A stretch of DNA of 32,000 nucleotides. Source: an uncultured Gammaproteobacteria bacterium. Its GTDB lineage: Bacteria; Patescibacteriota; Patescibacteriia; UBA9934. The notes under the pieces are model-generated. The model searched no databases and had not been told where the DNA came from. It was given only the letters and a program-made list of their open reading frames with translations. The stretch lies in the NCBI GenBank assembly GCA_964355955.1, contig CAYHFQ010000006.1:11633-43632 (forward strand). Direction: 5' to 3'. Below, piece after piece: positions 4,250 through 29,602 of the stretch. The translations under genes were made by a program, and so were the position numbers. Each line of letters begins with the position of its first letter. Position 1 is the first letter of the stretch.

Positions 4250-4615
4250 GTGGCTGCTTTTCTTAAAAACCTACGTTTTGCTCGCTTAGCCCTGGTTATT
4301 TGTGGTCTGTTGTTGCTGGCTGGGGTGCTGCTCGTTTGGTTTGCCTTGTTTCCGGCAGTGGAAACCTGGCGTGTTGTGCCACTCCATTATAATATTCACC
4401 TTGGTGTGGATAAGGTTGGCAAGTGGTGGGAGCTTTTTGTTCCTTCGGGGATTGGCGTAATTTTAACCTTGCTTAATGCTGGTTATGCGTCAATAATTTG
4501 GAAGCGCGAAAAGGTGATTGCTTATGCGGCGATTGTGACGGCGGTGATAGTCGATGCTTTAATTCTGATTCACTTAATTTTCCTTGTTCATTTGAACGTC
4601 ACTTATTATGCTTGA
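4250..4615 (+). CDS. Hypothetical integral membrane protein (GTG start)
   Basis: Three predicted hydrophobic helices. Overlaps the mraY start by 8 nt. Confidence 0.55.
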   Translation: MAAFLKNLRFARLALVICGLLLLAGVLLVWFALFPAVETWRVVPLHYNIHLGVDKVGKWWELFVPSGIGVILTLLNAGYASIIWKREKVIAYAAIVTAVIVDALILIHLIFLVHLNVTYYA

Positions 4616-5663
4616 TGCCTTTGCCTTGTCGAAAATTTTGGTCTTGGCCACGTTGTCGTTTTTGCTGGCCTTGGCCTGGACGCCACTTTTGACGCATTTT
4701 CTGTATCGTTTCCGTTTGGGAAAGTCGATTAGAAGTGCAGTTACGGCTCCAATGTTCGCCAAACTTCACGCTAAAAAGGCTGGAGTGCCTACGATGGGCG
4801 GGTTGCTCATGTGGGTAACGCCATTAGTGCTAGCTTTGATATTTTTCATCATCGCTGGATTAGCACCGGACTCCGCGATTGGCCAACTGAACTTCCTGTC
4901 ACGTCAGCAAACTTGGTTGCCATTATTCGCTCTGGTGGCTGCTGGCTTGCTTGGCTTAGTTGATGACTACTTGAACGTACGCGGAATTGGAGAGCATGGT
5001 GGCGGGATTCATATTCGTCATCGCTTGGTATTGTATACGATTATTGCGGCGATTGGTGCCTGGTGGTTTTACGTCAAATTGGGTTGGGATTCTCTGCATA
5101 TTCCGTTAGTCGGTAGCGTGACGATCGGCTGGTGGTATATTCCTTTGTTCATTGCGGTAATTGTCGCTACGTCATTTTCCGTTAATCAGACGGACGGTTT
5201 GGACGGTTTGGCTGGTGGGACACTGGCGTCGGCCTTTGGCGCCTATGCCGTGATTGCTTTGTTACAAGGGCAGGTCGACTTGGCTGCTTTCTGCGCGGTA
5301 ATTATGGGAGCGTTGTTCGCTTTCCTGTGGTTCAATATTTGGCCAGCCAGGTTTATTATGGGCGATACTGGGGCGATGTCGCTTGGGGTGACGCTTGGCG
5401 TGGTCGCGATGTTGACTGATTCGGCTTTGCTTTTACCAATCATTGGTATCGTCTTTGTAGTGGAAGCGGTGACGACAGCGATTCAGTTGATTTCCAAGAA
5501 GTTATTTCACAAAAAGGTGTTTTTGATTGCGCCGATTCATCATCATTTTGAAGCGAAGGGCTGGCCAGAGCCAAAAGTGGTTATGAGATTCTGGTTACTC
5601 TCTTGGATGGGGGCGGCGATTGGCTTGATTGTGGCGTTGCTCGATACCGCCTTGCTAGGATAG
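4608..5663 (+). CDS. mraY: Phospho-N-acetylmuramoyl-pentapeptide transferase
   Basis: Motifs DDYLNVRG, NQTDGLDGLAGG, GDTGAMSLG and APIHHHFE. Confidence 0.95.
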   Translation: MLDAFALSKILVLATLSFLLALAWTPLLTHFLYRFRLGKSIRSAVTAPMFAKLHAKKAGVPTMGGLLMWVTPLVLALIFFIIAGLAPDSAIGQLNFLSRQQTWLPLFALVAAGLLGLVDDYLNVRGIGEHGGGIHIRHRLVLYTIIAAIGAWWFYVKLGWDSLHIPLVGSVTIGWWYIPLFIAVIVATSFSVNQTDGLDGLAGGTLASAFGAYAVIALLQGQVDLAAFCAVIMGALFAFLWFNIWPARFIMGDTGAMSLGVTLGVVAMLTDSALLLPIIGIVFVVEAVTTAIQLISKKLFHKKVFLIAPIHHHFEAKGWPEPKVVMRFWLLSWMGAAIGLIVALLDTALLG

Positions 5664-5678
5664 ATAACCCAGTAATCA

Positions 5679-6791
5679 TTGCGTATGGAGCGAGGCGAGG
5701 GGGCAGTTGATCGCGGATTTCTACTGCTACTTGGTGGCATGGTGCTGTTTGGTTTGGTGATGTTGACGTCTGCTTCGTTCCCACTTGGTTTGAGTAAATT
5801 TGGTAATGGTTATTATTACTTGATTCACCAAGTTATCTTTGGCTTGTTGCCTGGCTTGGTTGGTTTTGCCATTGCCTATAAGCTGCCTTACACGGTTTAC
5901 AGGCGTTATGCTGGAGTGATGTTGTTCGTGTCGATTGCTCTATTGTTGTTAGTATTTATTCCTGGCATCGGTAAAGAGTTTGGTGGTTCACGAAGCTGGA
6001 TTGTGATTGGTTCGTTCTCCATGCAGCCTTCTGAGTTAGTGAAGCTGACATTTATGTTCTATTTGGCTGGCTGGCTGGAGAAGCGCAGTCAGCATGAGTT
6101 AAAGGATTTTTCTAAAGGTGTTTTACCGTTCCTATGCGTGCTTGGCGTGATTGCTTTCTTTTTGATTGAGCAGCCGGACACTGGCAGTATGTCGATTATT
6201 GTGGCTATGGCTTTAGCTACTTACTTTTCGGCTGGAGCGCCACTTAAGTATTTGCCGGGGGTAGTAGCGGCTGGCGTCGCTGGTTTGGCGTTATTGATTA
6301 AATTATCGCCGTACCGAGCAGCCCGATTCACGACCTTTTTGCATCCGGAACTTGATCCGCAGGGCGTGGGTTATCACATTAACCAGGCGTTGTTAGCGAT
6401 TGGCTCTGGCGGCTTGTTTGGTCGGGGCTATGGGCATTCATTGCAGAAATTTCAGTATTTACCAGAGGTGGCTGGCGACTCTATTTTTGCGGTGATTGGT
6501 GAGGAATTGGGTTTGATTTTTACTTGGGCTTTTTTGGCTCTAAATTTAGCTTTTTTATGGCGAGGTTTCCGGATTGCAGAACGTGCACCGGACGGCTTTA
6601 GTCGTTACCTAGTTGTTGGTATAATGACCTGGCTAGGCGTGCAGGCGGTGGTTAATATCGGAGCGATGGTCGGCTTGTTGCCGATTACGGGCGTACCATT
6701 ACCGCTCGTGAGTTATGGTGGTACGGCGCTCGTGGTCACGCTGACGGCTATGGGAATTGTGGCCAATGTGTCGAAGCATGGTAAAGGATGA
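5679..6791 (+). CDS. ftsW: SEDS-family peptidoglycan polymerase FtsW/RodA (TTG start at 5679, or ATG at 5685)
   Basis: Polytopic membrane protein. Motifs GGSRSWI, QPSELVKL and TGVPLPLVSYGGTAL. Positioned between mraY and murG. Confidence 0.9.
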   Translation: MRMERGEGAVDRGFLLLLGGMVLFGLVMLTSASFPLGLSKFGNGYYYLIHQVIFGLLPGLVGFAIAYKLPYTVYRRYAGVMLFVSIALLLLVFIPGIGKEFGGSRSWIVIGSFSMQPSELVKLTFMFYLAGWLEKRSQHELKDFSKGVLPFLCVLGVIAFFLIEQPDTGSMSIIVAMALATYFSAGAPLKYLPGVVAAGVAGLALLIKLSPYRAARFTTFLHPELDPQGVGYHINQALLAIGSGGLFGRGYGHSLQKFQYLPEVAGDSIFAVIGEELGLIFTWAFLALNLAFLWRGFRIAERAPDGFSRYLVVGIMTWLGVQAVVNIGAMVGLLPITGVPLPLVSYGGTALVVTLTAMGIVANVSKHGKG

Positions 6792-6797
6792 GGGATG

Positions 6798-6823
6798 GTA
6801 GATTGTAGAGAGTAGATAGTAGA
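6798..6823. repeat. Heptad array (GTAGANN)x4 in the ftsW-murG spacer
   Basis: GTAGA at 6798, 6805, 6812 and 6819: exact 7-nt period. Confidence 0.8.
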
Positions 6824-6834
6824 ATTATAATATT

Positions 6835-7917
6835 ATGTCTCAAGAGCAACATTTTTTACTAACCGGTGGTGGGACGCTCGGCAGCGTGACCCCGCTTTTA
6901 GCAATTGCGGCGGAATTACGGAAGCGAAATGCTAATGTATCGCTGTCATTTATTGGCACGCCGAATGGTCCTGAGCGATTGATTGTGGAGAGCCAACGGA
7001 TCCCTTTTTGGCAGTTGGCGGCGCCGAAACTTGACCGTCATCGTAAGTGGCTGTGGCCTATTTTACCGTTCATGTTTTTCTTTAGTTGGTTGCGGGCGTT
7101 GCGCCTGTTGTATGTCATGAAGCCGAACTTTGTTTTTGCGGCTGGTGGTTATGTTGGCGTGCCGGTCGCTTGGGCAGCGTTCTTTTTACGCATTCCGGTT
7201 TGGGTGCATCAGTTAGATGTATTGCCAGGCTTGGCGAATAAGCTGATGGCGCCAGTAGCTAAGAAAATTAGTGTTACTTTTGAAGAAACGGCTAGACATT
7301 TTTCGGCTAAAAAGACGATAGTGGTGGGTAGTATGGTGCGCCAGGCGATTCGTCATGGCGAAAGGGAGATTGCTTTGCAGCGTTATGGGTTTAACGTGGC
7401 TCTGCCGACCTTGTTAGTGGTTGGTGGTGGCACAGGTGCGGCGGCGATTAACGAGGCCTGTGCGGTTATTTGGCAGGACTTGGTACCATACATGAACGTG
7501 TTGCATTTGGTGGGTAGAGGTAAAATGTTGACGGCACTCGAACAGGCAAAACCCAGTTATGTGGCACTAGAGTTTTTAAATGAAGGCATGGCCGACGCTT
7601 ACGCGATTGCAGATATTGTAGTGTCGCGAGCAGGTCTAGGAACGATCTCGGAGTTGGCGGCACTGGGTAAGCCGGCGATAATTATTCCAATTCATGAACC
7701 GTTCCAGGAGGCCAATGCTCGAGTTTTGGAAGAACGAAAAGCAGCGCAGGTGATTTGGCATACGACACCACAGATATTAGAACAAACCATTAGGCGCTTG
7801 CTCGACAACCCAGAACTATGTGCAGATCTCAGTAAGAATATTCGAGGATTGTTCGCTTTGAATGCGGACGAACGTATTGCGCACGAAGCTTTGACTTTAT
7901 TAGCTCCAAAACTATGA
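6835..7917 (+). CDS. murG: UDP-GlcNAc:lipid I N-acetylglucosaminyltransferase
   Basis: Motifs GGGTLGSVTPLLAIA, VVGGGTGAAAIN and VVSRAGLGTISELAALGKPAIIIP. Confidence 0.92.
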   Translation: MSQEQHFLLTGGGTLGSVTPLLAIAAELRKRNANVSLSFIGTPNGPERLIVESQRIPFWQLAAPKLDRHRKWLWPILPFMFFFSWLRALRLLYVMKPNFVFAAGGYVGVPVAWAAFFLRIPVWVHQLDVLPGLANKLMAPVAKKISVTFEETARHFSAKKTIVVGSMVRQAIRHGEREIALQRYGFNVALPTLLVVGGGTGAAAINEACAVIWQDLVPYMNVLHLVGRGKMLTALEQAKPSYVALEFLNEGMADAYAIADIVVSRAGLGTISELAALGKPAIIIPIHEPFQEANARVLEERKAAQVIWHTTPQILEQTIRRLLDNPELCADLSKNIRGLFALNADERIAHEALTLLAPKL

Positions 7918-8189
7918 ATAAGGCTCAGTCGTTACGACCAATGTGGATTGGTTTAGCTTGTATGCTTGGGGGCGTGTTGGTAATTTGGTTGACGTTTCAT
8001 TTGGGTCGTGGTGCCACGCAGCAAGTTGTGGATACTACTGTAACTACGCCAGTAACCGAAAATGACAGTACGGGCGGCACAGCCTGTATTCAGGTGATTA
8101 CGCCGGCGAAGAATTTGACGACGGGTGAGGTTGTTGATTATCCAACGCCATGTGATGTGCCAGAAGGTTGGGAGGTAGTGGCAAAATAA
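7914..8189 (+). CDS. Small secreted/anchored protein with a Cys pair
   Basis: ATGA overlap with the murG stop. One TM segment, then C...TPCDVPEGWE. Confidence 0.55.
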   Translation: MNKAQSLRPMWIGLACMLGGVLVIWLTFHLGRGATQQVVDTTVTTPVTENDSTGGTACIQVITPAKNLTTGEVVDYPTPCDVPEGWEVVAK

Positions 8190-8258
8190 TTTAAAAAGAA
8201 GAACCGCTGCCTCACGCGCGGCTCTTCAAGAGAAGTTGAAGAGGGGTGAGGTGGCGGT

Positions 8259-8666
8259 TCAGAAGAGGGGAGGCTTGATGTCCATGATGGCGTCAGTGGC
8301 CTTGTTCAGCCGGCTGATCTCGTCGGTGCTGAAGATGTTTGGTCGCAGAGACTCTTCAGCGAACCAGGTGTGGATCTTGCCGGTTGGTACGAGTGGGCAG
8401 ACGGGCTTGAAAGACTGCTCCACAACACTATGTTGACGAAGGGCCACGGCGAGGGCGAGGTGCCAGTGGCGGAGGATCAACTCGCTCTTTTGGATGTCCT
8501 TGTAGCGCAGGACCTCGATGATGGTGGCCCAGACTTGGGCGAACTGCTCATCGGTCATCAGAGGAGTCTCGTTCTCCCAGACGATGGGTCGAGCGGAGCT
8601 GAAGATGGGCGGAGGCTCTGGGGCCTTGAAGGGCCAGGCTGGACTGCGTGGAGAACGGAAAGCCAT
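8259..8666 (-). CDS. Hypothetical 135-aa protein, codon-usage outlier
   Basis: The most protein-like of four overlapping ORFs here. All 11 Ile codons are ATC and all 8 Phe codons are TTC. SD AAGGA and a TTGACT-N17-TACATT promoter-like pair lie upstream on the minus strand. Confidence 0.5.
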   Translation of the reverse strand: MAFRSPRSPAWPFKAPEPPPIFSSARPIVWENETPLMTDEQFAQVWATIIEVLRYKDIQKSELILRHWHLALAVALRQHSVVEQSFKPVCPLVPTGKIHTWFAEESLRPNIFSTDEISRLNKATDAIMDIKPPLF

Positions 8667-11663: not shown

Positions 11664-11738
11664 TGGTGCGCCGAGCGGGGATCGAACCCGCGACCACAGG
11701 CTTAAAAGGCCTTTGCTCTACCACTGAGCTACCAGCGC
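11664..11738 (-). tRNA. tRNA-Lys (anticodon UUU), CCA encoded
   Basis: Manual cloverleaf: GCGCTGG/TA/GCTC-AGTGGTA-GAGC/A/AAGGC-CTTTTAA-GCCTG/TGGTC/GCGGG-TTCGATC-CCCGC/TCGGCGC/A/CCA. Confidence 0.93.
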
Positions 11739-11821: not shown

Positions 11822-13276
11822 ATGGACTTATTAAAACAAGAGAGTTTTCAAGATGCGATTGTGACCGTAATGGGACTGGGGAGATATGGTGGCGGAGGGG
11901 GGTTGAGCGCTACTAAATGGTTACTCCGACATGGGAGCCAGATTGTGATTACGGATTTGAAAGATGCTGCCGAGCTTAAGGAAAGCGTCGACGGCGTGAT
12001 GGAGTGGTTCAATAAGTATCGTGAGCTATTTCCAGATAGGACGATTTATCAGCCGTTGTTTATTTTGGGTCAACACAGGCCGGAGGATTTTTTGAGTGTG
12101 GATTGTGTAGTGCAGTCGCCGGGCGTGCAGAGTGAAGTGGAGTTTGTGCAGCAGGCCAAGGACAAGGGTGTAGCGATAGAGTCGGACGTCAGCCTTTTCT
12201 TCCGGTACTTTCCATTCCCGACGATTGCGGTGACTGGCACGCGGGGCAAGACGACTACTACACGTTTGCTTGGAGCGATGCTGAAGAAGATGGATGAGGG
12301 TGCTGTGATGGCTGGTAATATTGTGATGTCGCCGCTTGAGGTGCTTGATGAATTAATAGCCAAGAAGTCGCCGACGCCGGTGGTGATTGAATTGTCTTCC
12401 TGGATTTTGGAGAGTTTACCGACTGTTTTTTCCGACTTGAAGAAGGGGCCAGATATTGCGGTGATCACGAACGTCTTCCCGGATCACTTGAGCCGTTATG
12501 CAGATTTTGACGCTTATATCGCGTCGAAGGAGATAATGATAGCCAAACAGACGCCAGCCCAGTTTACAGTATTGAATTATGATAACGAGCCACTGCGGAA
12601 GTTGGCGGAGAAAGTGACCGGTAAGCTGTTTTGGTGTTCCGGTACGTCGCAAGAACATGACGGTTGCTATGTAAAAAATGGCCAGGTGGTGTTCCGTCAG
12701 GATAATTTGGAAACGGTTATTTTGCCGGTAGTTGAGCTTGGTTTGCAGAGTCCAGAAAATTTGGAAAATGTGTTGACGGCGGCTTGTGCGGCGATGTTGC
12801 GTGGTGTTAAAGTGGCTGATGTGGCTGCGACGCTCAAAGAATTTGTTGGTGCCAGCGAGCCACAAGAGTTGGTGCGCGAGGTCGACGATATTACTTTTAT
12901 CAACGATACAGTGGCAATTACGCCGAATGCGACAATTGAGGCACTCAAGAAGTTCGGCGGGCACGGCGACGTGGTGTTGATTGCTGGTGGCGAGGACCAG
13001 AGTGTTGATTATAAGGAGTTGATTGAGGCTATTGCTAGGTCATGTAAGCACGTCATCTTGCTGCCTGGCACAGCGTCGGACAGTTTTGAGACGATGTTGC
13101 AGGGTAAAATAGAGACTGAACGGGCACTGGAGATGGCCGACGCGGTAATGAAGGCGAGGGCGGCAGCGGTGCGCGGCACGGTAGTCCTGTTGTCGCCAGC
13201 TGCGCCAGGTGCTCCACTTTTTGCGAATGAGTTTGTACGAGGGGAGCAGTTTAGAGACGCTGTCCGAACCTTATAA
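11822..13276 (+). CDS. murD: UDP-N-acetylmuramoylalanine--D-glutamate ligase
   Basis: Rossmann-like N-terminus VMGLGRYGGG. Mur ligase P-loop VTGTRGKTTTTRL. C-terminal LLSPAAPGAPLF..F..RGEQF. Confidence 0.88.
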   Translation: MDLLKQESFQDAIVTVMGLGRYGGGGGLSATKWLLRHGSQIVITDLKDAAELKESVDGVMEWFNKYRELFPDRTIYQPLFILGQHRPEDFLSVDCVVQSPGVQSEVEFVQQAKDKGVAIESDVSLFFRYFPFPTIAVTGTRGKTTTTRLLGAMLKKMDEGAVMAGNIVMSPLEVLDELIAKKSPTPVVIELSSWILESLPTVFSDLKKGPDIAVITNVFPDHLSRYADFDAYIASKEIMIAKQTPAQFTVLNYDNEPLRKLAEKVTGKLFWCSGTSQEHDGCYVKNGQVVFRQDNLETVILPVVELGLQSPENLENVLTAACAAMLRGVKVADVAATLKEFVGASEPQELVREVDDITFINDTVAITPNATIEALKKFGGHGDVVLIAGGEDQSVDYKELIEAIARSCKHVILLPGTASDSFETMLQGKIETERALEMADAVMKARAAAVRGTVVLLSPAAPGAPLFANEFVRGEQFRDAVRTL

Positions 13277-13550
13277 TAGGCGGGGTTACCACGCCCCGCT
13301 GTATCTGTCTTTGCGAGCGTCAGCGAAGCAATCTTGGCCAGCGATTCGCCGTTCCAGTCAACGCGAGACTCGGGGAGTCCCTTTCTTTCTCCGTCGGGCG
13401 TTTAGACGATCGACAATTACTATTGAATGTGAATTGTCGACATATAAACGCGCGTCCCTCGGTCGACGAAAGGGACATCCCACTCGTCTTCGTTGACTAC
13501 GGGCTCGATAATACGTTTAATCTACCAACTACCGACTACCAACTTTTCTT
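13277..13550 (+). repeat. 274-nt modular GC-rich intergenic element (copy A)
   Basis: Modules AATAGGCGGGGTTACCACGCCCCGC (13275-13299), GTCTTTGCGAGCGT (13307-13320) and GAGACTCGGGG (13365-13375). Hairpins at 13410-13440 and 13454-13476. GATAAT at 13507-13512. Heptads CTACC at 13522, 13529 and 13536. Confidence 0.6.
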
Positions 13551-16581: not shown

Positions 16582-16656
16582 GGAGCCATTTCCGGGATTC
16601 GGACCCGGGACCTCTGCTTTACGAAAGCATTGCTCTACCAGCTGAGCTAAAATGGC
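16581..16656 (-). tRNA. tRNA-Thr (anticodon CGU), CCA encoded
   Basis: Manual cloverleaf: GCCATTT/TA/GCTC-AGCTGGTA-GAGC/A/ATGCT-TTCGTAA-AGCAG/AGGTC/CCGGG-TCCGAAT-CCCGG/AAATGGC/T/CCA. Confidence 0.9.
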
Positions 16657-16657
16657 A

Positions 16658-16732
16658 TGGAGCGGGAAATGGGGCTCGAACCCACGACCTTCTGCTTGGG
16701 AAGCAGACGTTCTACCACTGAACTATTCCCGC
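16658..16732 (-). tRNA. tRNA-Gly (anticodon CCC), CCA encoded
   Basis: Manual cloverleaf: GCGGGAA/TA/GTTC-AGTGGTA-GAAC/G/TCTGC-TTCCCAA-GCAGA/AGGTC/GTGGG-TTCGAGC-CCCAT/TTCCCGC/T/CCA. Confidence 0.92.
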
Positions 16733-16812: not shown

Positions 16813-17496
16813 ATGATTCGTTTTACCAATGTCAATAAAGTCTACAAACCAACAACTCATGCTTTGAGTGGCATTAGTTTTCATGTTAAACCAGGGGAGT
16901 TTGTGTCGATTGTTGGTTCGAGTGGATCGGGCAAGACGACGCTGGCTAAGTTGTTGTTTGCAGAGGAACGGCCGACGAGCGGCAAGATTGTGGTGGGGGA
17001 TTGGGATATTACGGCTATTCATCGGTCAGAAATTCCAACTTTGCGGCGGCAGATTGGGGTAGTGTTTCAAGATTTTAAGTTGCTCGGCCGCAAGACGGTG
17101 TATGAGAATGTGGCTTTTGCGTTAGAAGTTGCAGGGGCGGCAAATGCGAGGATCAAAGAAGTAGTGCCGCAAGTGCTGAAGATTGTGGGCTTGGGCGACA
17201 AGCATGAGCGTTATCCCAACCAGCTTTCAGGCGGTGAACAGCAGCGCGTGAGTATTGCGCGAGCCTTGGTGCACCGGCCCAAGATTATTGTGGCCGACGA
17301 GCCAACTGGTAACCTCGACACCGTCACGTCGCGCGAGATTATTGAGTTACTGAAAAAGATTAACGAGTTTGGGACGACGGTGGTGCTCGTGACGCACGAT
17401 AGGGATATTGTGAATGCGCTCAAAAAGAGGGTGTTGACGATCAACGGTGGCAAGATTGTGAGTGACGTCGAGCATGGGAAGTACATGCTCGGTTAA
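16813..17496 (+). CDS. ftsE: Cell-division ABC ATPase FtsE
   Basis: Walker [10 protein letters not shown], signature LSGGEQQRV, Walker [13 protein letters not shown]. ftsX lies downstream. Confidence 0.9.
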
Positions 17497-17771
17497 AGAT
17501 CTAATCCGTCTTTGCGAGCGTTAGTAATAGGCGGGGTCACCGTCCCCCGCCAGTAGAGACTCGGCTCCACGGCCAAGGCTCGGGGACATTACTTCGCGGG
17601 TCCTGCCGACTGCGGACCCCGTTCGGTGCTCGCAAGCTGCGCGCCGCCCGGGGGCCTCCCTCCGCGTCACCCGCTAAAGGAATTAGCCTGCCTCTCGCTA
17701 CTTGGCCTTACAGGTTCAATAATTCGTCAAATCTACTTTCTACCTTCTACAATCCACTAGCTCACTACTCT
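17497..17771 (+). repeat. 275-nt modular GC-rich intergenic element (copy B)
   Basis: GTCTTTGCGAGCGT at 17508-17521. Hairpin module AATAGGCGGGGTCACCGTCCCCCGCCAG at 17526-17553. GAGACTCGG at 17556-17564. GGGTCC/GGACCC at 17598-17619. AATAAT at 17718-17723. Heptads TCTAC at 17732, 17739 and 17746 (TCCAC at 17753). Confidence 0.6.
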
Positions 17772-18683
17772 ATGCGAACAATCCTCCGCGTCATCAAGTT
17801 TACAGGTCAGAGTCTGTGGCGCAACGCCTGGTTGTCGCTGATAACGCTGACGATTTTTGTGCTGACGCTGATGACGGTCAATGCGGTGTTGTTGGTCAAT
17901 GTGGTGACGAGTAGTGCGATTAAGGCGGTGCAGAATGAGGTACAGGTGGCGGTTTACTTTGTGCCGGGGACGAGTGAAGCCACGGAGAAAGCAGTGCGTG
18001 GCTATCTTCTCGGTTTGAGTCAAGTAAAAACGGTGGAGGTGATTACGGCTGAGCAAGCGTTGCAAAACTTCAGGGATAAGAATGCAGGTGATCCAACTGT
18101 TCTCTCAGCACTCGACGAGGTAGGCGGTAATCCGTTTGGGGACGCGGTGGTGGTGTCGGCCAAGTCGCCTGACGATTTCTCTTTCATTATCGAAGCAATC
18201 AAGACGCCAGAATTCGCGCCGTCAATTAAACAGACGGATTATACGGATTATCAGGTGGTGATTGAAAAGCTAACGTCGTTTACGGATAAGTTACGTTTGG
18301 CTGGCTTGGTGTTGGCTGGTTTCTTTGGGCTCATTTCCATGTTGATTATCTTCAATGCTATTCGTATTGCTATTTACGTCCACAGAGACGAGATTGCGAT
18401 TATGAAGTTGGTAGGGGCGCAGGATTGGTTTATTCGCGCGCCGTTCTTGTTGGAAGCTGTGCTTTTGTCCTTGTTAGCAACGGTAATTATGACGGGTGTG
18501 GTATTGGCGTCGACTAAGGCGCTGGATGTGCCGCTCATGCAATATTTTGGTCAGGCTAACTTGAGTTTGTGGAGTTACTTCACGAGTAACGCTTTAGTTA
18601 TTTTTGGTGGTGAGTTCTTGGGCCTGGCAATCCTCAGCGTGTTGACGACGGTCTTTGCGATTAGGAAACATTTAAGAGTTTAA
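17772..18683 (+). CDS. ftsX: Cell-division permease-like protein FtsX
   Basis: N-terminal TM segment, an extracytoplasmic domain, three C-terminal TM segments, and EIAIMKLVGAQDWFIR. Confidence 0.88.
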   Translation: MRTILRVIKFTGQSLWRNAWLSLITLTIFVLTLMTVNAVLLVNVVTSSAIKAVQNEVQVAVYFVPGTSEATEKAVRGYLLGLSQVKTVEVITAEQALQNFRDKNAGDPTVLSALDEVGGNPFGDAVVVSAKSPDDFSFIIEAIKTPEFAPSIKQTDYTDYQVVIEKLTSFTDKLRLAGLVLAGFFGLISMLIIFNAIRIAIYVHRDEIAIMKLVGAQDWFIRAPFLLEAVLLSLLATVIMTGVVLASTKALDVPLMQYFGQANLSLWSYFTSNALVIFGGEFLGLAILSVLTTVFAIRKHLRV

Positions 18684-20483
18684 GCGGAGCCATTCTTCTT
18701 CTTCGGAAGCGAGGAGAGTGGTGAGTTCTTTGAGTTCACGGTTTTTTTCTGGTGCGTAGTCGGTGGGGTTGTCAAAGAAAAATTGGAGGAGTTCGCTTTT
18801 CTTTTTGTCTTGCTCGGCCATTAATTTTTCTAGTTGAGCGATTTGCCGCTGTTTGGTTTTTTGTTCCAGGCGACGGCGTTGGCGTTCGAGTTCACTTTCA
18901 TTCTGGCGGGGGGCGGTGACCCCGCCTATTGCGCCGTCGACGTCAGCGGTAAGGACTTCTTCTAGGCTGGCGACGTAATCCTCGTAGGTGTCGGGGTAGG
19001 TGCGCACGGTGCCGTTACTTACTTCGAGTAAACGATTGGCCACGGTGTTGACGAAGGTGCGGCTGTGGCTGACGAAGATGACGGTACCGCCGTAGTTGGC
19101 CAGGGCGTCGGCCAAGGCTTCTGAGGTCTCGAAGTCGAGGTGGTTAGTTGGCTCGTCGAGCAGAAGGACGTTGTGGGCGTGCAAAAGAATACCGGCTAAA
19201 CAGAGGCGGGCTTTTTCGCCACCGGACAGAACAGAGACAGTTTTGCTTAAGTCGTCGCGGCGGAAGAGGAAGTTGCCGGCCATGCGGAGGACGTCTTCTT
19301 CTTTAGCATCGACCGGGGCGCAACGGCGGAGGTATTCGTCAACGCGATCGCTGGGGCGGAGGGCGGCTTCCACATGTTGAGCGTAGTAGCCAAAGTCGGC
19401 CTTGTGCCACCAGGCTATTTTGCTATCTTCGCCGAGTGGCGGAAGTTCGCCGGCGAGGGTTTTGAGCAGAGTCGTTTTGCCTTGGCCGTTGTTGCCGAGA
19501 ATGACTACTTTGTCGCCACGAGGAATTTCGAAAGAGATATTGTCGGCGATGACTTTGCTGCCGTAACCGATAGCGAGATGTTCGACGCGGAGAATACTGC
19601 CGGGCTTGGTGACGACGGGCGGGAGGGCAATGCGGGCGGTGGCGAGTTTGTTGTCGATGCTAATAGTGTGGAGTTTAGCAATAGCTTTGAGTTTGGATTG
19701 GGCTTGTTTGGCTTTGCTGGCTTTGTAGCGGAAACGGTCGACAAAGTCTTGCAGATGTTCTTTCTGCGCCATGATCTTCTTGTTAGTGTTTTGGATGTAG
19801 CCGGCCTGTTCTTCTTTGAACGCCAAATAAGATTCAACGTCACCGGGGAAAAAGGTGAGGCGGCCGTGGGCGACTTCCAAGGTGGAGGTGCAGGTGCGTT
19901 TGAGGAATTCGCGGTCGTGGCTAATGACCAGGATGCTGCCGCGGAAGGTTTGCAGGACGTGTTCGAGGAGCAAGAGGGTGGTGAGGTCGAGGTAGTTGGT
20001 TGGTTCGTCGAGTAGGAGAAGATTAGGGTCAGCAAGAAGCATGGCGGTTAGTTTGACGCGCATGCGGTAGCCGCCGGAGAGACTGGCGGCGACGGTGGTG
20101 AGGAGGTCGCGTTTGAGTTGGAAGCGACCGGACATTTTGGCGCATTCCCAGTCGGCTTTACCGCTGACCCGCATGAGGAAGTCGAGGACGGTTTCGGTTG
20201 GCGGGAACTCGGCGTGTTGCTCAACGTAGCCCAAGCGGACGCCGGGGAGGTGTTTGATTTGGCCCGCATCTAGCTCTTCTTGACCCAGGATCATTTTGAA
20301 GAGGGTTGACTTGCCGGCGCCGTTGCGACCAATGACGGCGGTCTTTTGCTCGTCGTTAATGACGATGTTGGCGTCGTCAAAAATGACGGTATTACCGTAT
20401 TTTTTGCTAAGGTCAGTGATTTCTAGAAGTGGGCGAATATGGGCCTGATGATAGCTTAATTGACAAAATTTGGCCAATACCAT
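18672..20483 (-). CDS. ABC-F family ATPase (two ABC cassettes, no TM domain)
   Basis: GRNGAGKST / LSGGYRMRV and GNNGQGKTT / LSGGEKARL. Charged coiled-coil C-terminal tail. 12-nt convergent overlap with ftsX. Confidence 0.9.
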   Translation of the reverse strand: MVLAKFCQLSYHQAHIRPLLEITDLSKKYGNTVIFDDANIVINDEQKTAVIGRNGAGKSTLFKMILGQEELDAGQIKHLPGVRLGYVEQHAEFPPTETVLDFLMRVSGKADWECAKMSGRFQLKRDLLTTVAASLSGGYRMRVKLTAMLLADPNLLLLDEPTNYLDLTTLLLLEHVLQTFRGSILVISHDREFLKRTCTSTLEVAHGRLTFFPGDVESYLAFKEEQAGYIQNTNKKIMAQKEHLQDFVDRFRYKASKAKQAQSKLKAIAKLHTISIDNKLATARIALPPVVTKPGSILRVEHLAIGYGSKVIADNISFEIPRGDKVVILGNNGQGKTTLLKTLAGELPPLGEDSKIAWWHKADFGYYAQHVEAALRPSDRVDEYLRRCAPVDAKEEDVLRMAGNFLFRRDDLSKTVSVLSGGEKARLCLAGILLHAHNVLLLDEPTNHLDFETSEALADALANYGGTVIFVSHSRTFVNTVANRLLEVSNGTVRTYPDTYEDYVASLEEVLTADVDGAIGGVTAPRQNESELERQRRRLEQKTKQRQIAQLEKLMAEQDKKKSELLQFFFDNPTDYAPEKNRELKELTTLLASEEEEWLRLNS

Positions 20484-21344: not shown

Positions 21345-21400
21345 TGTGGATAAGTGGTCTACATTCAACGTATACGTTGAATGTAGACCACTTATCCACA
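21345..21400. repeat. Perfect 56-nt palindrome (28-bp arms); minus-strand terminator-like; arms end in consensus DnaA boxes
   Basis: All 28 pairs checked base by base. TGTGGATAA at 21345-21353 and TTATCCACA at 21392-21400. On the minus strand it is followed by CCTCTTTTTGATTTC. Confidence 0.85.
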
Positions 21401-22000
21401 GGTGAGGCGGCCGGCAGCGATTTCGATGGCGTCGGCGGGGCGGAGGTTTTGACGTTGTTTGGGGGTGAGAATGGCGTGATGTTTAACGTTGACGAGATGA
21501 ACGGGTATATACCAGACTGGTTCAACTGATGTCATCCAGCCCTGTTTGTCGAAACGGGCGAGGTTGACTGGCTTGGTGAAGCTGCGGAGGGTTTTACGGC
21601 CGTCGTTTAAAAAGTATTCATGGAAGTACGACATAACGAGTTCGCGGATGGTGCGGTAGATTGGTTCACGGTAGCGGAGCACGGCGTGATTAGTCTTGGA
21701 AATAGCGCCCCAATGACGGCCACCTTTGAAGACGGCAATGACGTGGTCGAAGTCGTCTTTGCTGCTGGTTAAATCGACGATTAGCGGTTGGTGACCGTGA
21801 AAACGTAAAGCCGCGGCGGCGAGCATGGCGCCTTCCATGCATTGAGCGGTACCGAAACGAATAACTTCTTTAGGTGACAGACAGGTGTCGTTAGCGTCGA
21901 CGAAGTGAAAGGGGAGAGAATTCAAATAATCCTGGATTTTGGCCGGGGTTGAGAGCTTTTTGAGCTGTTTGCGTTCGCTGGCGGTAAAGTCGGAAAACAT
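21392..22000 (-). CDS. Transglutaminase-like cysteine-protease-fold protein (hypothetical)
   Basis: Candidate Cys-His triad context: GTAQCMEGAML ... DFDHVIAVF ... HWGAISKTNH. Confidence 0.6.
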   Translation of the reverse strand: MFSDFTASERKQLKKLSTPAKIQDYLNSLPFHFVDANDTCLSPKEVIRFGTAQCMEGAMLAAAALRFHGHQPLIVDLTSSKDDFDHVIAVFKGGRHWGAISKTNHAVLRYREPIYRTIRELVMSYFHEYFLNDGRKTLRSFTKPVNLARFDKQGWMTSVEPVWYIPVHLVNVKHHAILTPKQRQNLRPADAIEIAAGRLTCG

Positions 22001-22039: not shown

Positions 22040-22113
22040 GTAGAATGTAGATGGTAGAGAGTAGAAACTCATAAGCAGAATGAGCCGTCTACCGACTACA
22101 ATCTACATTCTAC
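22040..22113. repeat. Facing heptad arrays (GTAGANN)x4 and (NCTACNN)x4
   Basis: GTAGA at 22040, 22047, 22054 and 22061. CTAC at 22089, 22096, 22103 and 22110. GTAGAATGTAGAT (22040-22052) is the exact complement of 22101-22113. Confidence 0.8.
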
Positions 22114-26749: not shown

Positions 26750-26821
26750 TATATTCGTATAGTGATTCTATTCGGTTGTGTTATACTTGAATTATTAGCC
26801 AAGATTCAAGCTTTAGAATAT

Positions 26822-29602
26822 ATGACAACCAATCATAGAAGTCGCCGTTTCACGAGCGGAATATTCTTATTTTCTGCTTTGACTGTGTTCGTGGTATTCG
26901 CAGCTGTGGTTCTGCTAAGCTCGTCGCCACTGCGGAGTTGGCTGAGGCAGGTGACGCTCGATAAGGCTGGTATTAATGCGGCCTCGGCCGACGCTCCTGT
27001 GACTGCTGTTAGTTTGGGGTCAGCTAATATTTCCGAATTGACGGGAGAAGTGACACTGGATGCGACCGGTATTAAAACGATTACAGCCGGAGATGTTAAT
27101 AATGATGGATATAGTGATTTTTTGGTAGCTTCCAAGACTAATGATGATGCTGGACTAAACGCTGGGGCTGCATATCTGGTCTATGGAAGGTCGACGGTGT
27201 TGACTTCAGAAAGTTTGGGCGGCAGTTCAAACACAGTGGTCGAATTTACTGGTGAAGCGGCGAGCGATTATGCGGGTACGATAGTTGGGCCGGCAGGTGA
27301 TGTGAACAATGATGGATATGCTGATTTTCTAATAACTTCATATCAGCCAGGACCAGGTGTTGGTAATGGTCAAACGTATTTAATTTATGGCCAGGCCGCT
27401 ACTTTTGCGTCGACAACCAGCTTAGGAGCAGCTGGGATTGTTAAATTCACGGGTGAGGCGCTGAACGATGCTGCAGGATCGATGGCTAATGGTGTTGGTG
27501 ACGTGAATAATGATAGTTACGACGATTTCATGATTGGAGCTACGGCGAATGATGATACTGCGCTAAACGCTGGCGCGGCTTACCTTATTTATGGTCAAGC
27601 GGCGCCCTTAGTGTCGGCTAATTTAAGTACAGCTATTGAATTTGCTGGTGAGGCGACTGCTGATACTGCGGGAGTATGTATTTCAGGTGGCGACTTTAAT
27701 AATGACGGGTATAGTGACATGCTTATTTCAGCCTCGACCTATGCTGCTAATAACTTAGGCCGAACGTACCTCTTCTACGGTAAAGCGGAGGCTTTTACTT
27801 CTGCCAACCTTAGCACAGCAGATGCTATTTTTACTGGCGAGGTAGCAGAGGATTCATCGGGTATAAATATTGACTCGGCGGGCGATGTAAATAATGATAC
27901 ATACGACGATATTATTATCGCTGCTTCAGCTAATGATGATGCGGGGACTGGCGCAGGAGCTGTTTACCTGATCTACGGCCAGGCTGCTCATTTAGCTTCT
28001 GCTAGTTTGAGTACCGCCGTAGAGTTTACTGGTGAAGCTGCTGGTGATGCGGCTGGTAATTCAGTGAGTAAGGCAGGTGATATAAATGCTGATGGTTACG
28101 ACGACTTCTTGGTTGGCGCCCCGTTAAATAATGATGCGGCGAGTGATGCTGGAGCGGCTTACTTGATTTACGGCCAAGCGGCTGCCTTGACGGCGGCTAG
28201 CTTAAGCACGTTTGTTGAGTATACTGGAGAAGCCGCTAGCGATAGAGCAGGTAATAGTGTTAGTACCGGTGGCGATATAAATAATGATGGTTATCTTGAT
28301 TTGTTGATTAGTAGTAGATATAGCGATGATAATGCTGTTGATGCTGGAGCAGTTTATATTGTGTATTATCAGCCACCAACAGTGTCTCTGACGGCAGCCA
28401 CGCAAACTGTGGCTGAGAGCGTGGCGTCGGGTACGGTGACGGCTCAGCTGGCCTTGGCTTTTCCATATACCGTAACGGTGCCTTATACGGTTACTGGTAC
28501 AGCGACTGGTGGGGGGACGGACTATACTTTAGCGAATGGTAATATTACTATTCCGGTTGGTACAACGAGTGGTGATGTGAGCTTCACGGTTTTTGATGAT
28601 TTTACATATGAGCTTGATGAGACGATGATTGTGACGATTAGTCGACCAAGTTACGGAACATTGTCTGGCACCACGGTGCAAACTATTACTATCACCAACA
28701 ACGATACTCCTTCCAAAGTAATATCTAACCCAGCTACGACGGCTGCTAAAACAATTACAGTTTTGACGCCAATAATAGCTACAGAAATAGTTGAGGGTTC
28801 AACGATGGGTGTAACTTGGCAATATACTGGGGTTATTCCAGCGGTGTCGGTGTATGTGTCGACTAACGGCGGGACGAGCTGGACGGTAATGAAAGCCAAT
28901 ATCTCGAATGAAGGATCGACGACGTTTGCTGCGCCTTTTGTGACAACGAGTCAGGCCTTGGTGAAGGTTGAAGGGACTGATTTGGCGACGGTCTTAGCGA
29001 CGGGGATTAGCGACCCATTTTATTTGCTGAAAGCGGCTGGTGACGTACCAACGGAGATTATTGTCATTCCAGAGACTCCGATTAGCACTGGAGCTGGCTC
29101 GACAGAAGCTGAAACGTTAATAGCCACTTGGCCAGCTGCGGTAAGTGTGGATACGCTGATTAAAATTAGAGGTGATGGCGATGAGTCGACGACTTATGAC
29201 GCTGTAGTTTATGCGCTGAGTGCTGACGGCTACCGTCATGCTTTCCCGAATGAGAGCGTCTACTTTACTTGGTATAGTAGCTTTGATGATATAACAAAAA
29301 TATCGGCGGCTGACATGGCGAAGATTAAACTGGGGAGTAACGTGACTTACCGGCCAGGTAGCAAGATGGTTAAGTTTACAACAGGAAATAAGGTTTACGC
29401 AGTAGATCGAGGCGGTGTGTTGCGTTGGGTGACGACCGAAGCCGCGGCACGAGTATTGTATGGTAATGATTGGAATACTAAAATTGATGACATTTCCGAT
29501 GCCTTGTTTGGTAGCTACAGCTTTGGCGCCATTATTAATTCGGAAGTCGACTACGACCCAAATGGATTTACTGACGTGGTGAACCCGGGTGATTCGCTGT
29601 AG
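26822..29602 (+). CDS. Large surface protein: signal anchor, seven FG-GAP repeats, a Calx-beta-like domain and a C-terminal domain
   Basis: Seven units of GD(V/I/F)NNDGY(S/D)DFL...NAGAAYL(I/V)YG spaced about 65-70 aa apart (nt about 27086-28382). Then TVSLTAATQTVAESVASGT...VTGTATGGGTDY...DDFTYELDE. I prefer the ATG at 26822 (MTTNHRSRRF plus TM). Confidence 0.8.
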   Translation: MTTNHRSRRFTSGIFLFSALTVFVVFAAVVLLSSSPLRSWLRQVTLDKAGINAASADAPVTAVSLGSANISELTGEVTLDATGIKTITAGDVNNDGYSDFLVASKTNDDAGLNAGAAYLVYGRSTVLTSESLGGSSNTVVEFTGEAASDYAGTIVGPAGDVNNDGYADFLITSYQPGPGVGNGQTYLIYGQAATFASTTSLGAAGIVKFTGEALNDAAGSMANGVGDVNNDSYDDFMIGATANDDTALNAGAAYLIYGQAAPLVSANLSTAIEFAGEATADTAGVCISGGDFNNDGYSDMLISASTYAANNLGRTYLFYGKAEAFTSANLSTADAIFTGEVAEDSSGINIDSAGDVNNDTYDDIIIAASANDDAGTGAGAVYLIYGQAAHLASASLSTAVEFTGEAAGDAAGNSVSKAGDINADGYDDFLVGAPLNNDAASDAGAAYLIYGQAAALTAASLSTFVEYTGEAASDRAGNSVSTGGDINNDGYLDLLISSRYSDDNAVDAGAVYIVYYQPPTVSLTAATQTVAESVASGTVTAQLALAFPYTVTVPYTVTGTATGGGTDYTLANGNITIPVGTTSGDVSFTVFDDFTYELDETMIVTISRPSYGTLSGTTVQTITITNNDTPSKVISNPATTAAKTITVLTPIIATEIVEGSTMGVTWQYTGVIPAVSVYVSTNGGTSWTVMKANISNEGSTTFAAPFVTTSQALVKVEGTDLATVLATGISDPFYLLKAAGDVPTEIIVIPETPISTGAGSTEAETLIATWPAAVSVDTLIKIRGDGDESTTYDAVVYALSADGYRHAFPNESVYFTWYSSFDDITKISAADMAKIKLGSNVTYRPGSKMVKFTTGNKVYAVDRGGVLRWVTTEAAARVLYGNDWNTKIDDISDALFGSYSFGAIINSEVDYDPNGFTDVVNPGDSL

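Follow-up and report, generated by a model that had tools for sequence, protein, structure and literature searches.

Two inverted hairpins around ftsX as very likely members of a dispersed, transposase-associated repeat family of Candidatus Uhrbacteria

We wanted to explain why two almost identical hairpins face each other across the cell-division gene ftsX in a bacterial DNA stretch of 32,000 nt (contig CAYHFQ010000006.1, positions 11,633 to 43,632; hereafter the window). One lies behind ftsE and the other is translated within a gene for an ABC-F ATPase. The original prediction had offered two readings of this arrangement, either a hairpin module inserted in frame into a tolerant linker or a pair of crossover sites for a DNA inversion. 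We conclude that the two arms are very likely independent members of a family of repetitive extragenic palindromes (REPs), carried by a clade of Candidatus Uhrbacteria (Patescibacteria, candidate phyla radiation (CPR)) and associated with a REP-associated tyrosine transposase (RAYT), and that they do not form an inversion switch. Related loci are designated below by L numbers and proteins by P numbers. The features on which the question turns are as follows.

16813-17496, plus strand: ftsE, ABC ATPase of 227 aa
17526-17553, plus strand: copy B, intergenic, in the ftsE-ftsX spacer, 30 nt past the ftsE stop codon
17772-18683, plus strand: ftsX, 303 aa, with FtsX_ECD and FtsX domains, between copies B and C
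18672-20483, minus strand: ABC-F ATPase gene, 603 aa, convergent to ftsX, hosting copy C
18903-18930, minus strand: copy C, intragenic, in the ABC-F sense strand, encoding AIGGVTAPRQ (aa 518-527)
13275-13300, plus strand: copy A, a diverged T-type variant, GTTACCACGCCCCGCT, overlapping the murD stop codon TAA (13274-13276)

A repeat search aligned arms B and C over 28 nt with 27 matching positions (96% complementary) and a spacing of 1349 nt. With up to 3 mismatches allowed, a pattern search returned these two sites alone, and 0.00 were expected from 100 shuffles. The predicted match was therefore reproduced. The predicted peptide was also found in frame, as the gene reads ...DVDG-AIGGVTAPRQ-NESELERQ..., and since the repeat ends at Q527, 76 codons of the ABC-F gene do lie past it. 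In each window copy a 7-bp GC stem carries an 8-nt loop (26-28 nt in total), and the RNA folds of the hairpins reached -15 to -17 kcal/mol, about -16 (z = -3.2 to -3.6 against shuffles). Copy B consists of an AATAG tag, a GGCGGGG/CCCCGCC stem and the loop TCACCGTC. All three window copies carry the ATAG head (AATAG-GCGGGG), although the search did not demand a head.

A hairpin family and its transposase

We observed that both arms belong to a dispersed family. A fuzzy search of the window and 12 Uhrbacteria loci (144 kb) returned 16 copies, while 0.1 were expected. Another Uhrbacteria genome (L125) added one copy and L127 added six, for a total of 23 copies; the sequence that contains them amounts to about 176 kb and comes from at least 5 Candidatus Uhrbacteria genomes. 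The consensus unit is 26-27 nt long and comprises the ATAG tag, the 7-bp GC stem and the 8-nt loop. The 26-nt core of copy C (18905-18930) is identical in intragenic copies of L031, L076 and L092. In L125 the stem is still perfect with flank and loop changed, while the stems of the L076 site 1 copy and of the L005 copy contain pair-breaking changes. As for density, the 32-kb window has 3 copies and L127 has 6 within 12.7 kb (9 in approximately 45 kb of the probable source genome).

Further, we scanned the 16-mer AATAGGCGGGGTYACC over 596 Gb of species-representative genomes and over viral contigs. Most matches were due to chance. Among the matches listed, the 16-mer recurred in the Candidatus Uhrbacteria metagenome-assembled genomes (MAGs) LJ_bin-3226, Umea1p2_bin-0579 and UBA11707. 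At least about 120 loci were listed, and the full hairpin at the right spacing was present in Candidatus Uhrbacteria MAGs only; none of the listed matches from other organisms or viruses had a complementary arm. The full 26-nt degenerate pattern gave 0 matches in the Joint Genome Institute (JGI) metagenome collection, and therefore the family appears narrowly distributed.

In two genomes copies of the hairpin flank a RAYT gene and are also located inside it. The first gene, at 4644-5129 of L127, encodes P0243 (161 aa), which scored 101.7 bits against NCBIfam NF047646 (cutoff 80; profile positions 11-145 of 146). The protein contains both the HUH motif (PDHFHCII) and the Tyr motif (WYIIRNPVE), and its best match among solved structures in PDB was E. 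coli TnpA_REP (4ER8). Four REPs accompany this gene in L127, and two further ones are located in the adjoining nrdJ gene.

4372-4397, plus strand: REP beside the RAYT gene
4601-4626, minus strand: REP 17 nt ahead of the RAYT ATG
4933-4958, minus strand: REP within the RAYT gene
5131-5156, minus strand: REP 1 nt past the RAYT stop

The second gene is truncated. In L021, from MAG LJ_bin-3226, two inverted copies surround an open reading frame (ORF) of 119 aa with the motif VVMPDHFHCIIWP (2319-2678). It matched Pfam Y1_Tnp (E = 4.5e-8, above cutoff) and its best NCBIfam match was NF047646 (E = 5.9e-14, profile positions 11-88 of 146). All sequence 3' of its internal REP has been lost, the Tyr motif included, so this copy is a pseudogene. 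The truncated form is found on 7 contigs, and its deletion endpoint lies at the REP. Inverted REPs flanking a RAYT gene are the defining arrangement of REP/RAYT systems (PMC2817692). This arrangement was present in L127 and, with the truncated RAYT, in L021, and because copies both flank and sit inside the RAYT gene in two genomes we regard the hairpin as a REP element. The window's genome very probably encodes the intact RAYT P0243, outside the window, since the largest contig carrying P0243 and the largest contig carrying the window's exact ABC-F protein (P0121) are 1,085,513 bp each and come from the same sources.

E. coli TnpA_REP requires the tetranucleotide at the 5' foot of the hairpin in order to bind and to cut, and the position of the cut is set by A3 and G4 (PMC3479197). 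Compared with GTAG, the ATAG head described here retains T2, A3 and G4 and differs in the first base. We also observed codons of REP origin within the RAYT genes themselves (P0242-P0248), in the section that separates the HUH motif from the catalytic Tyr helix. In P0243 they read RGMVTPPI, in the antisense frame, and P0244, P0245 and P0248 contain two inverted copies, approximately 30 residues extra.

Eight of 10 copies outside host genes lie no more than 30 nt downstream of a stop codon: A and B of the window, L021a and L021b, the L099 copy, and the copies at 4372, 4601 and 5131 of L127 (L021a is the RAYT-internal copy, counted as extragenic relative to a convergent 696-aa ORF). T6 directly follows the L099 copy, and an orthologous copy in L005 and L050 is located in a 5' leader. 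Since REPs up to 20 bp from ORF 3' ends, as well as intragenic REPs, have been described (PMC3733652), the placement behind stop codons fits the published REP pattern. A terminator scan did not call the window REPs, which lack a T-tract.

Copies inside genes and the ABC-F site

The family is not extragenic as a whole, as 12 of the 23 copies are found in genes other than RAYT, at 8 sites, with additional ones inside RAYT genes. We confirmed the identities of the host genes by Pfam.

ABC-F ATPase gene: one site, in the window and L002
Class II ribonucleotide reductase gene (nrdJ): two linker sites in L076 and L127, site 1 in L125
SufS-like protein (C-terminus) and SufU/NifU_N protein: L074
bPH_2 membrane protein: L061
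Two membrane proteins with Pro-rich N-terminal tails: L031 and L092

Orientation and frame were the same at all 8 host sites (12 copies), giving IGGVT(A/M/T)PR each time. Four of the six frames of the module are free of stops, and the chance of a single frame being used throughout is about (1/4)^7 = 6e-5. Site 1 of nrdJ provided a direct measure of the inserted unit: once exactly 27 nt are taken out of L076, its linker is as long as that of the REP-free ortholog L126. Therefore the unit is 27 nt (9 codons), and its insertion never causes a frameshift. Among nrdJ orthologs the distribution of REPs is patchy and confined to linkers. The other host sites are low-complexity linkers or termini, with the exception of the SufU copy, which lies in a normally structured region.

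In the ABC-F protein the domains are two ABC cassettes, the ABC_tran_Xtn linker domain and a C-terminal helical tail, and its homologs put the window within Patescibacteria, close to Candidatus Uhrbacteria. The window linker reads DVDG-AIGGVTAPRQNES-ELERQ, and that of L002 (95% identical over shared columns) reads DVDG-VIGGVTAPNEN-ELERQ. In P0001 (96%), P0003 and P0004 the linker is DVDG-(E/V)N(K/T)E(P/Q)(S/P)LPNLD-ELERQ; closer as well as more distant orthologs have no REP peptide. An ortholog alignment of this kind had been suggested as a check for an insertion. Just the left 18 nt of the module (ATAGGCGGGGTCACCGCG) are left in L002, its linker has the length of that of REP-free L004, and its ABC-F gene is intact although the 3' arm of the copy is lost. 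These 18 nt are identical between the window and L002, and four-fold sites there are 61% identical. A tree of the window, P0001 and P0002 outside the module (2 versus 0 informative sites) does not separate a single gain from recombination, so a single gain in the common ancestor of the window and L002 is possible.

We obtained an AlphaFold2 model of the ABC-F protein from 44 homologs, with a mean predicted local distance difference test (pLDDT) score of 87.1. Values below 50 were found at residues 1-14 and 518-529 only. The latter segment is REP-encoded and is the sole internal segment of this kind; it is predicted to lie between a helix at 500-516 and the long C-terminal helix at 527-571. According to this model, copy C is tolerated in a floppy loop that joins the C-terminal helical tail to the second ABC cassette. 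The original prediction of a REP-like hairpin placed in frame in a tolerant linker is thus supported by the RAYT association and by the low pLDDT of 518-529. The insertion was not a clean one, since alignment of orthologs indicates that approximately 8 ancestral codons were replaced with a net gain of 2, and such a location is not unusual in itself, as was supposed, because intragenic REPs are documented (PMC3733652). In the window ABC-F protein (18933-18941) the REP peptide is followed by NESE, and so it is in the SufU-like protein of L074, an unrelated protein whose codons for these residues differ; the agreement is probably a coincidence, because the SufU NESE aligns to native sequence.

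By analogy with E. coli, the RAYT would be the enzyme that mobilises these hairpins. As an HUH/Y1 single-strand DNA transposase of the IS200/IS605 superfamily it would bind the folded hairpin together with its 5' tetranucleotide, as TnpA_REP does, and would then cut and rejoin single strands, scattering copies over the genome. With 27 nt per insertion and four of six frames open, the reading frame of a host gene would be kept. The copies that survive would be (a) those no more than about 30 nt downstream of stops and (b) those within disordered linkers of genes whose orientation and frame yield the small and flexible peptide IGGVT(A/M/T)PR. Copy C would be such an intragenic survivor and copy B an ordinary copy behind the ftsE stop, and their facing each other across ftsX would be a by-product of the local REP density.

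Several observations weigh against this explanation. Orthologous intragenic copies are identical at 46 of 52 positions (88%), in comparison with 64.5% at four-fold sites of the same gene, a difference that points to constraint, to homogenisation or to recent origin and would not be expected of pure junk. The RAYT copy of LJ_bin-3226 is the pseudogene without the Tyr region, and the link between P0243 and the window, which probably holds, comes from the matching 1,085,513-bp figure and sources and not from overlapping sequence. The ABC-F linker has 13 codons, compared with 11 in relatives, so no clean 27-nt insertion took place there: about 7-8 of the ancestral codons have been lost from the window or overwritten there, and in L002 18 nt were swapped without a change of length. 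The site needs either later compensating deletions or patch-like conversion, and we infer that copy C replaced its ancestral codons by a route of this kind. The number of copies per genome comes from approximately 45 kb and is an extrapolation, on the order of 100-200 per ~1.1 Mb if the density is constant. REPs in general are about 20-40 nt long and often number more than 100 per genome. Finally, most copies are singletons and not REP doublets forming hairpins (REPINs) or clusters of bacterial interspersed mosaic elements (BIMEs), doublet-like pairs being found just inside the RAYT proteins P0244, P0245 and P0248 and around RAYT genes, and the tag is ATAG in nearly all copies instead of the canonical GTAG/GT(A/G)G or CGTC.

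Alternative explanations

Another reading is that the REP/RAYT system of these ultra-small CPR genomes has become more than selfish DNA. Selection acting on the nucleic acid itself may maintain the in-frame hairpins, for example as sites that RAYT binds or as elements of mRNA structure at domain boundaries. We consider this unlikely, with some hints in its favor: orthologous intragenic copies are far more conserved than synonymous sites, a single orientation and frame serves all 8 host sites, and RAYT genes, too, have REP-derived codons between their catalytic motifs.

A little less likely still is that the hairpins are kept mainly for a host function, as stabilisers or terminators at mRNA 3' ends or as protein-binding sites, with spread by RAYT being secondary and with the intragenic copies subject to selection on the nucleic acid. 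The clustering of 8 of 10 copies outside host genes within 30 nt past a stop, one of them (L099) with T6, is in agreement with such a role. So are the high identity of orthologous copies compared with four-fold sites, the L125 stem that has remained perfect, and the retention of the L005/L050 copy in a 5' leader. REPs have also been reported as regulators in 3' untranslated regions of E. coli (10.64898/2026.03.23.713779). However, the window copies have no T-tract and were not called as terminators, the ABC-F gene of L002 is intact after loss of the 3' arm, and stem-breaking changes are found in L076 site 1 and in L005. The conservation, measured on small samples, may equally reflect young age, gene conversion or peptide constraints.

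Phase variation by inversion, the second reading of the original prediction, is very improbable. The arms would serve as crossover sites, and the flip would truncate ABC-F at Q527 and remove its C-terminal helical tail; ftsX, together with its leader, would then run in the direction of ABC-F and no longer be coupled to ftsE. The junctions expected in the flipped state are ...GTTAGTAATAGGCGGGGTCACCGYCCCCCGCCAGAATGAAAGTG... and ...GACGGCGCAATAGG...CGCCAGTAGAGACTCGG... When we simulated the flip, TAG followed CGC CAG directly, as had been noted, and the resulting 527-aa product ended ...GVTAPRQ*. An identity of 27 of 28 nt is about the minimum length for homologous recombination, REPs are known as sites of rearrangement, and one deletion endpoint, that in the L021 RAYT, does lie at a REP. 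Rare RecA-mediated flipping of the segment may occur.

Nevertheless, we found nothing that supports the flipped state. No invertase, recombinase or transposase domain was detected by Pfam in 20 window ORFs, with the rest annotated via orthologous loci, and in this respect the original prediction was right; the RAYT, which lies elsewhere, is not an invertase but an HUH nuclease acting on single strands. The orientation in an independent assembly (L001) is that of the reference, four contigs carry the exact 603-aa protein at full length, and the convergent order of ftsX and ABC-F is also found in the contigs of P0001 and in L002, L003 and L004. The predicted 527-aa products (A and V variants) were both absent from approximately 15 billion proteins. 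Further, the same REP stands singly in many unrelated genes. The one mismatch between the arms is informative as well. Among C-type copies all 9 intragenic ones have GCx and 6 of 7 extragenic ones have GTx (Fisher p = 0.0009, counts not fully independent), and the mismatch falls on this class-diagnostic base (GTC in the intergenic arm, GCC in the intragenic arm). Therefore the arms have not been homogenised by exchange, and neither is a recent copy of the other.

Least credible of all is that a stretch of ordinary ABC-F coding sequence was duplicated into the nearby ftsE-ftsX spacer, for instance through a replication template switch to the opposite strand 1.35 kb away; the coding copy would then be the original and the repeat would mean nothing beyond this locus. 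In L002 a partial coding copy is present and the homologous spacer has none, which makes the coding copy no younger than the spacer copy at this locus. Inverted orientation at short distance is a signature of template switching, and the window also contains a perfect 56-nt palindrome resembling a local inverted duplication. On the other side, the same 26-mer is present in at least 5 genomes, in unrelated genes and at intergenic sites and flanking RAYT genes, closer and more distant ABC-F orthologs lack the peptide, and copy B has the base typical of intergenic copies in other genomes and not that of copy C. The dispersed family effectively refutes local copying.

Three other candidates, a CRISPR repeat, a tRNA fragment and a peptide-level motif, were ruled out by nucleotide-level identity across unrelated genes and intergenic sites, and a motif resembling a DNA uptake sequence was set aside after the RAYT association emerged.

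The surrounding locus and relation to known systems

Two of the window hairpins lie in spacers that are related to each other.

17497-17771, plus strand: element B, ftsE-ftsX spacer, 275 nt, holding copy B as a separable sub-module
13277-13550, plus strand: element A, spacer between murD and a mur ligase gene, 274 nt, paralogous to element B, with copy A at its 5' edge

Element B is kept in L002 without the REP and is missing in L003, where ftsE and ftsX overlap; the L003 equivalent of element A is only 22 nt between murD and the next mur ligase gene. Because of this overlap and short gap, we consider both spacers of about 275 nt to be additions in the lineage of the window. In the L002 spacer, approximately 26 nt common with the other spacer of the window occupy the place of the hairpin, and since this homologous spacer exists without it, the hairpin is a separable module. 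Both elements were inserted between co-directional cell-division genes (murD/mur ligase and ftsE/ftsX), and they have the blocks GTCTTTGCGAGCGTyAG, GAGACTCGG and ATAATwCGT..AATCTAC..CTACC in common. Their 3' ends have a promoter- or leader-like look. Their motifs were not found in the other Uhrbacteria loci examined. Rfam at the gathering threshold identified only tRNAs in the whole window, and at E <= 1 it gave no match in the ftsE-ftsX spacer. The fold of the entire 275-nt spacer was no better in energy than shuffles (z = -0.66).

G-poor, CTAC-rich stretches are located directly before start codons at 13520-13550, 17735-17771 and 22040-22113, the last of which forms a 26-nt inverted repeat. 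They may be a lineage-specific leader or ribosome-loading signal. Three tRNA genes lie on the minus strand (16584-16732 and 11667-11738). Two of them, between a rotamase gene and ftsE, precede ftsE, which therefore opens a new transcription context. The perfect palindrome, at 21345-21400 (28+28 nt, no spacer), is located between the stop of a 202-aa ORF (21392-22000, minus strand) and the tmk start, with DnaA-box-like outer ends, TGTGGATAA ... TTATCCACA. As L002, L003 and L004 have one TTATCCACA there, the palindrome resembles the product of an inverted duplication that took place locally, within the lineage of the window. The junction of ftsX and ABC-F is a variable spot, occupied by a 512-aa ORF in L002 (11831-13369) and by a 136-aa ORF in L003 (2702-3112). 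L003 also has a 1197-aa ORF adjoining ftsE (4807-8400), and these extra ORFs of the relatives had no Pfam matches. A 946-aa ORF of the window (26762-29602) contains seven tandem units of approximately 195 nt, FG-GAP-type repeats, at 27086-28314.

Compared with the REP/RAYT systems of E. coli (REP with TnpA_REP/YafM) and the REPs and REPINs of Stenotrophomonas and Pseudomonas, this family has the same short GC-rich imperfect palindrome with a conserved 5' tetranucleotide. It is likewise clade-restricted and dispersed, with a RAYT gene flanked by repeats and extragenic copies just downstream of ORFs. It differs in having ATAG and not GTAG/GT(A/G)G, in occurring mostly as singletons and not as REPIN doublets or BIMEs, in having more than half of the copies inside genes, and in RAYT genes with REP-derived codons between the HUH and Tyr motifs. 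The host is also different, a Patescibacteria genome of ~1.1 Mb and not a proteobacterium.

Intragenic REPs with GTAG or CGTC tags were described in several phyla, for example in Opitutus terrae and Thauera, with uvrA and dnaE among the hosts (PMC3733652). Like the present copies, they lie in frame in housekeeping genes, sometimes two per gene, as tolerated decorations and not functional domains. They are mostly dimers encoding 20-30 residues, whereas here a single 27-nt hairpin encodes approximately 9 residues, with strictly one orientation and frame at 8 host sites, in another lineage and with another tag. Rickettsia palindromic elements (RPEs) are also selfish palindromes found in frame in many unrelated essential genes, where the frame gives a tolerated peptide. 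The RPE-1 type is about 100-150 bp long, encodes 30-50 aa and has no associated transposase, in contrast to 27 nt, 9 aa and a cognate RAYT here; RPE-4 and RPE-6 are CGTC-type REPs (PMC3733652, PMC10969869). We saw no sequence similarity between the Uhrbacteria REP and the Rickettsia RPE families. Invertons (Hin, Fim and those of the PhaseFinder type) share with this locus short inverted repeats around a gene-sized segment; here, by contrast, no invertase gene adjoins the segment, the repeats belong to a genome-wide REP family, nothing points to a second orientation, and the flipped state would truncate a conserved protein. In the searchable literature we found no report of a REP/RAYT system in Patescibacteria or the CPR.

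In summary, a type of selfish DNA that was already known is now seen in a further bacterial lineage, and its distinctive features there are the ATAG head, the 27-nt singletons, the intragenic majority in one frame and the REP-derived codons inside RAYT genes. A local oddity is thereby explained by a genome-wide process, and the unsupported story of an ftsX switch is removed. Annotators who meet IGGVTxPR in a Uhrbacteria protein should take it for the footprint of a REP and not for a functional motif. Genomes of ~1 Mb offer a compact test bed for REP insertion, for the tolerance of 9-residue insertions at domain boundaries and for RAYT domestication. If selection at the nucleic-acid level does hold the in-frame hairpins, this would be a 'REP' family acting mainly inside genes.

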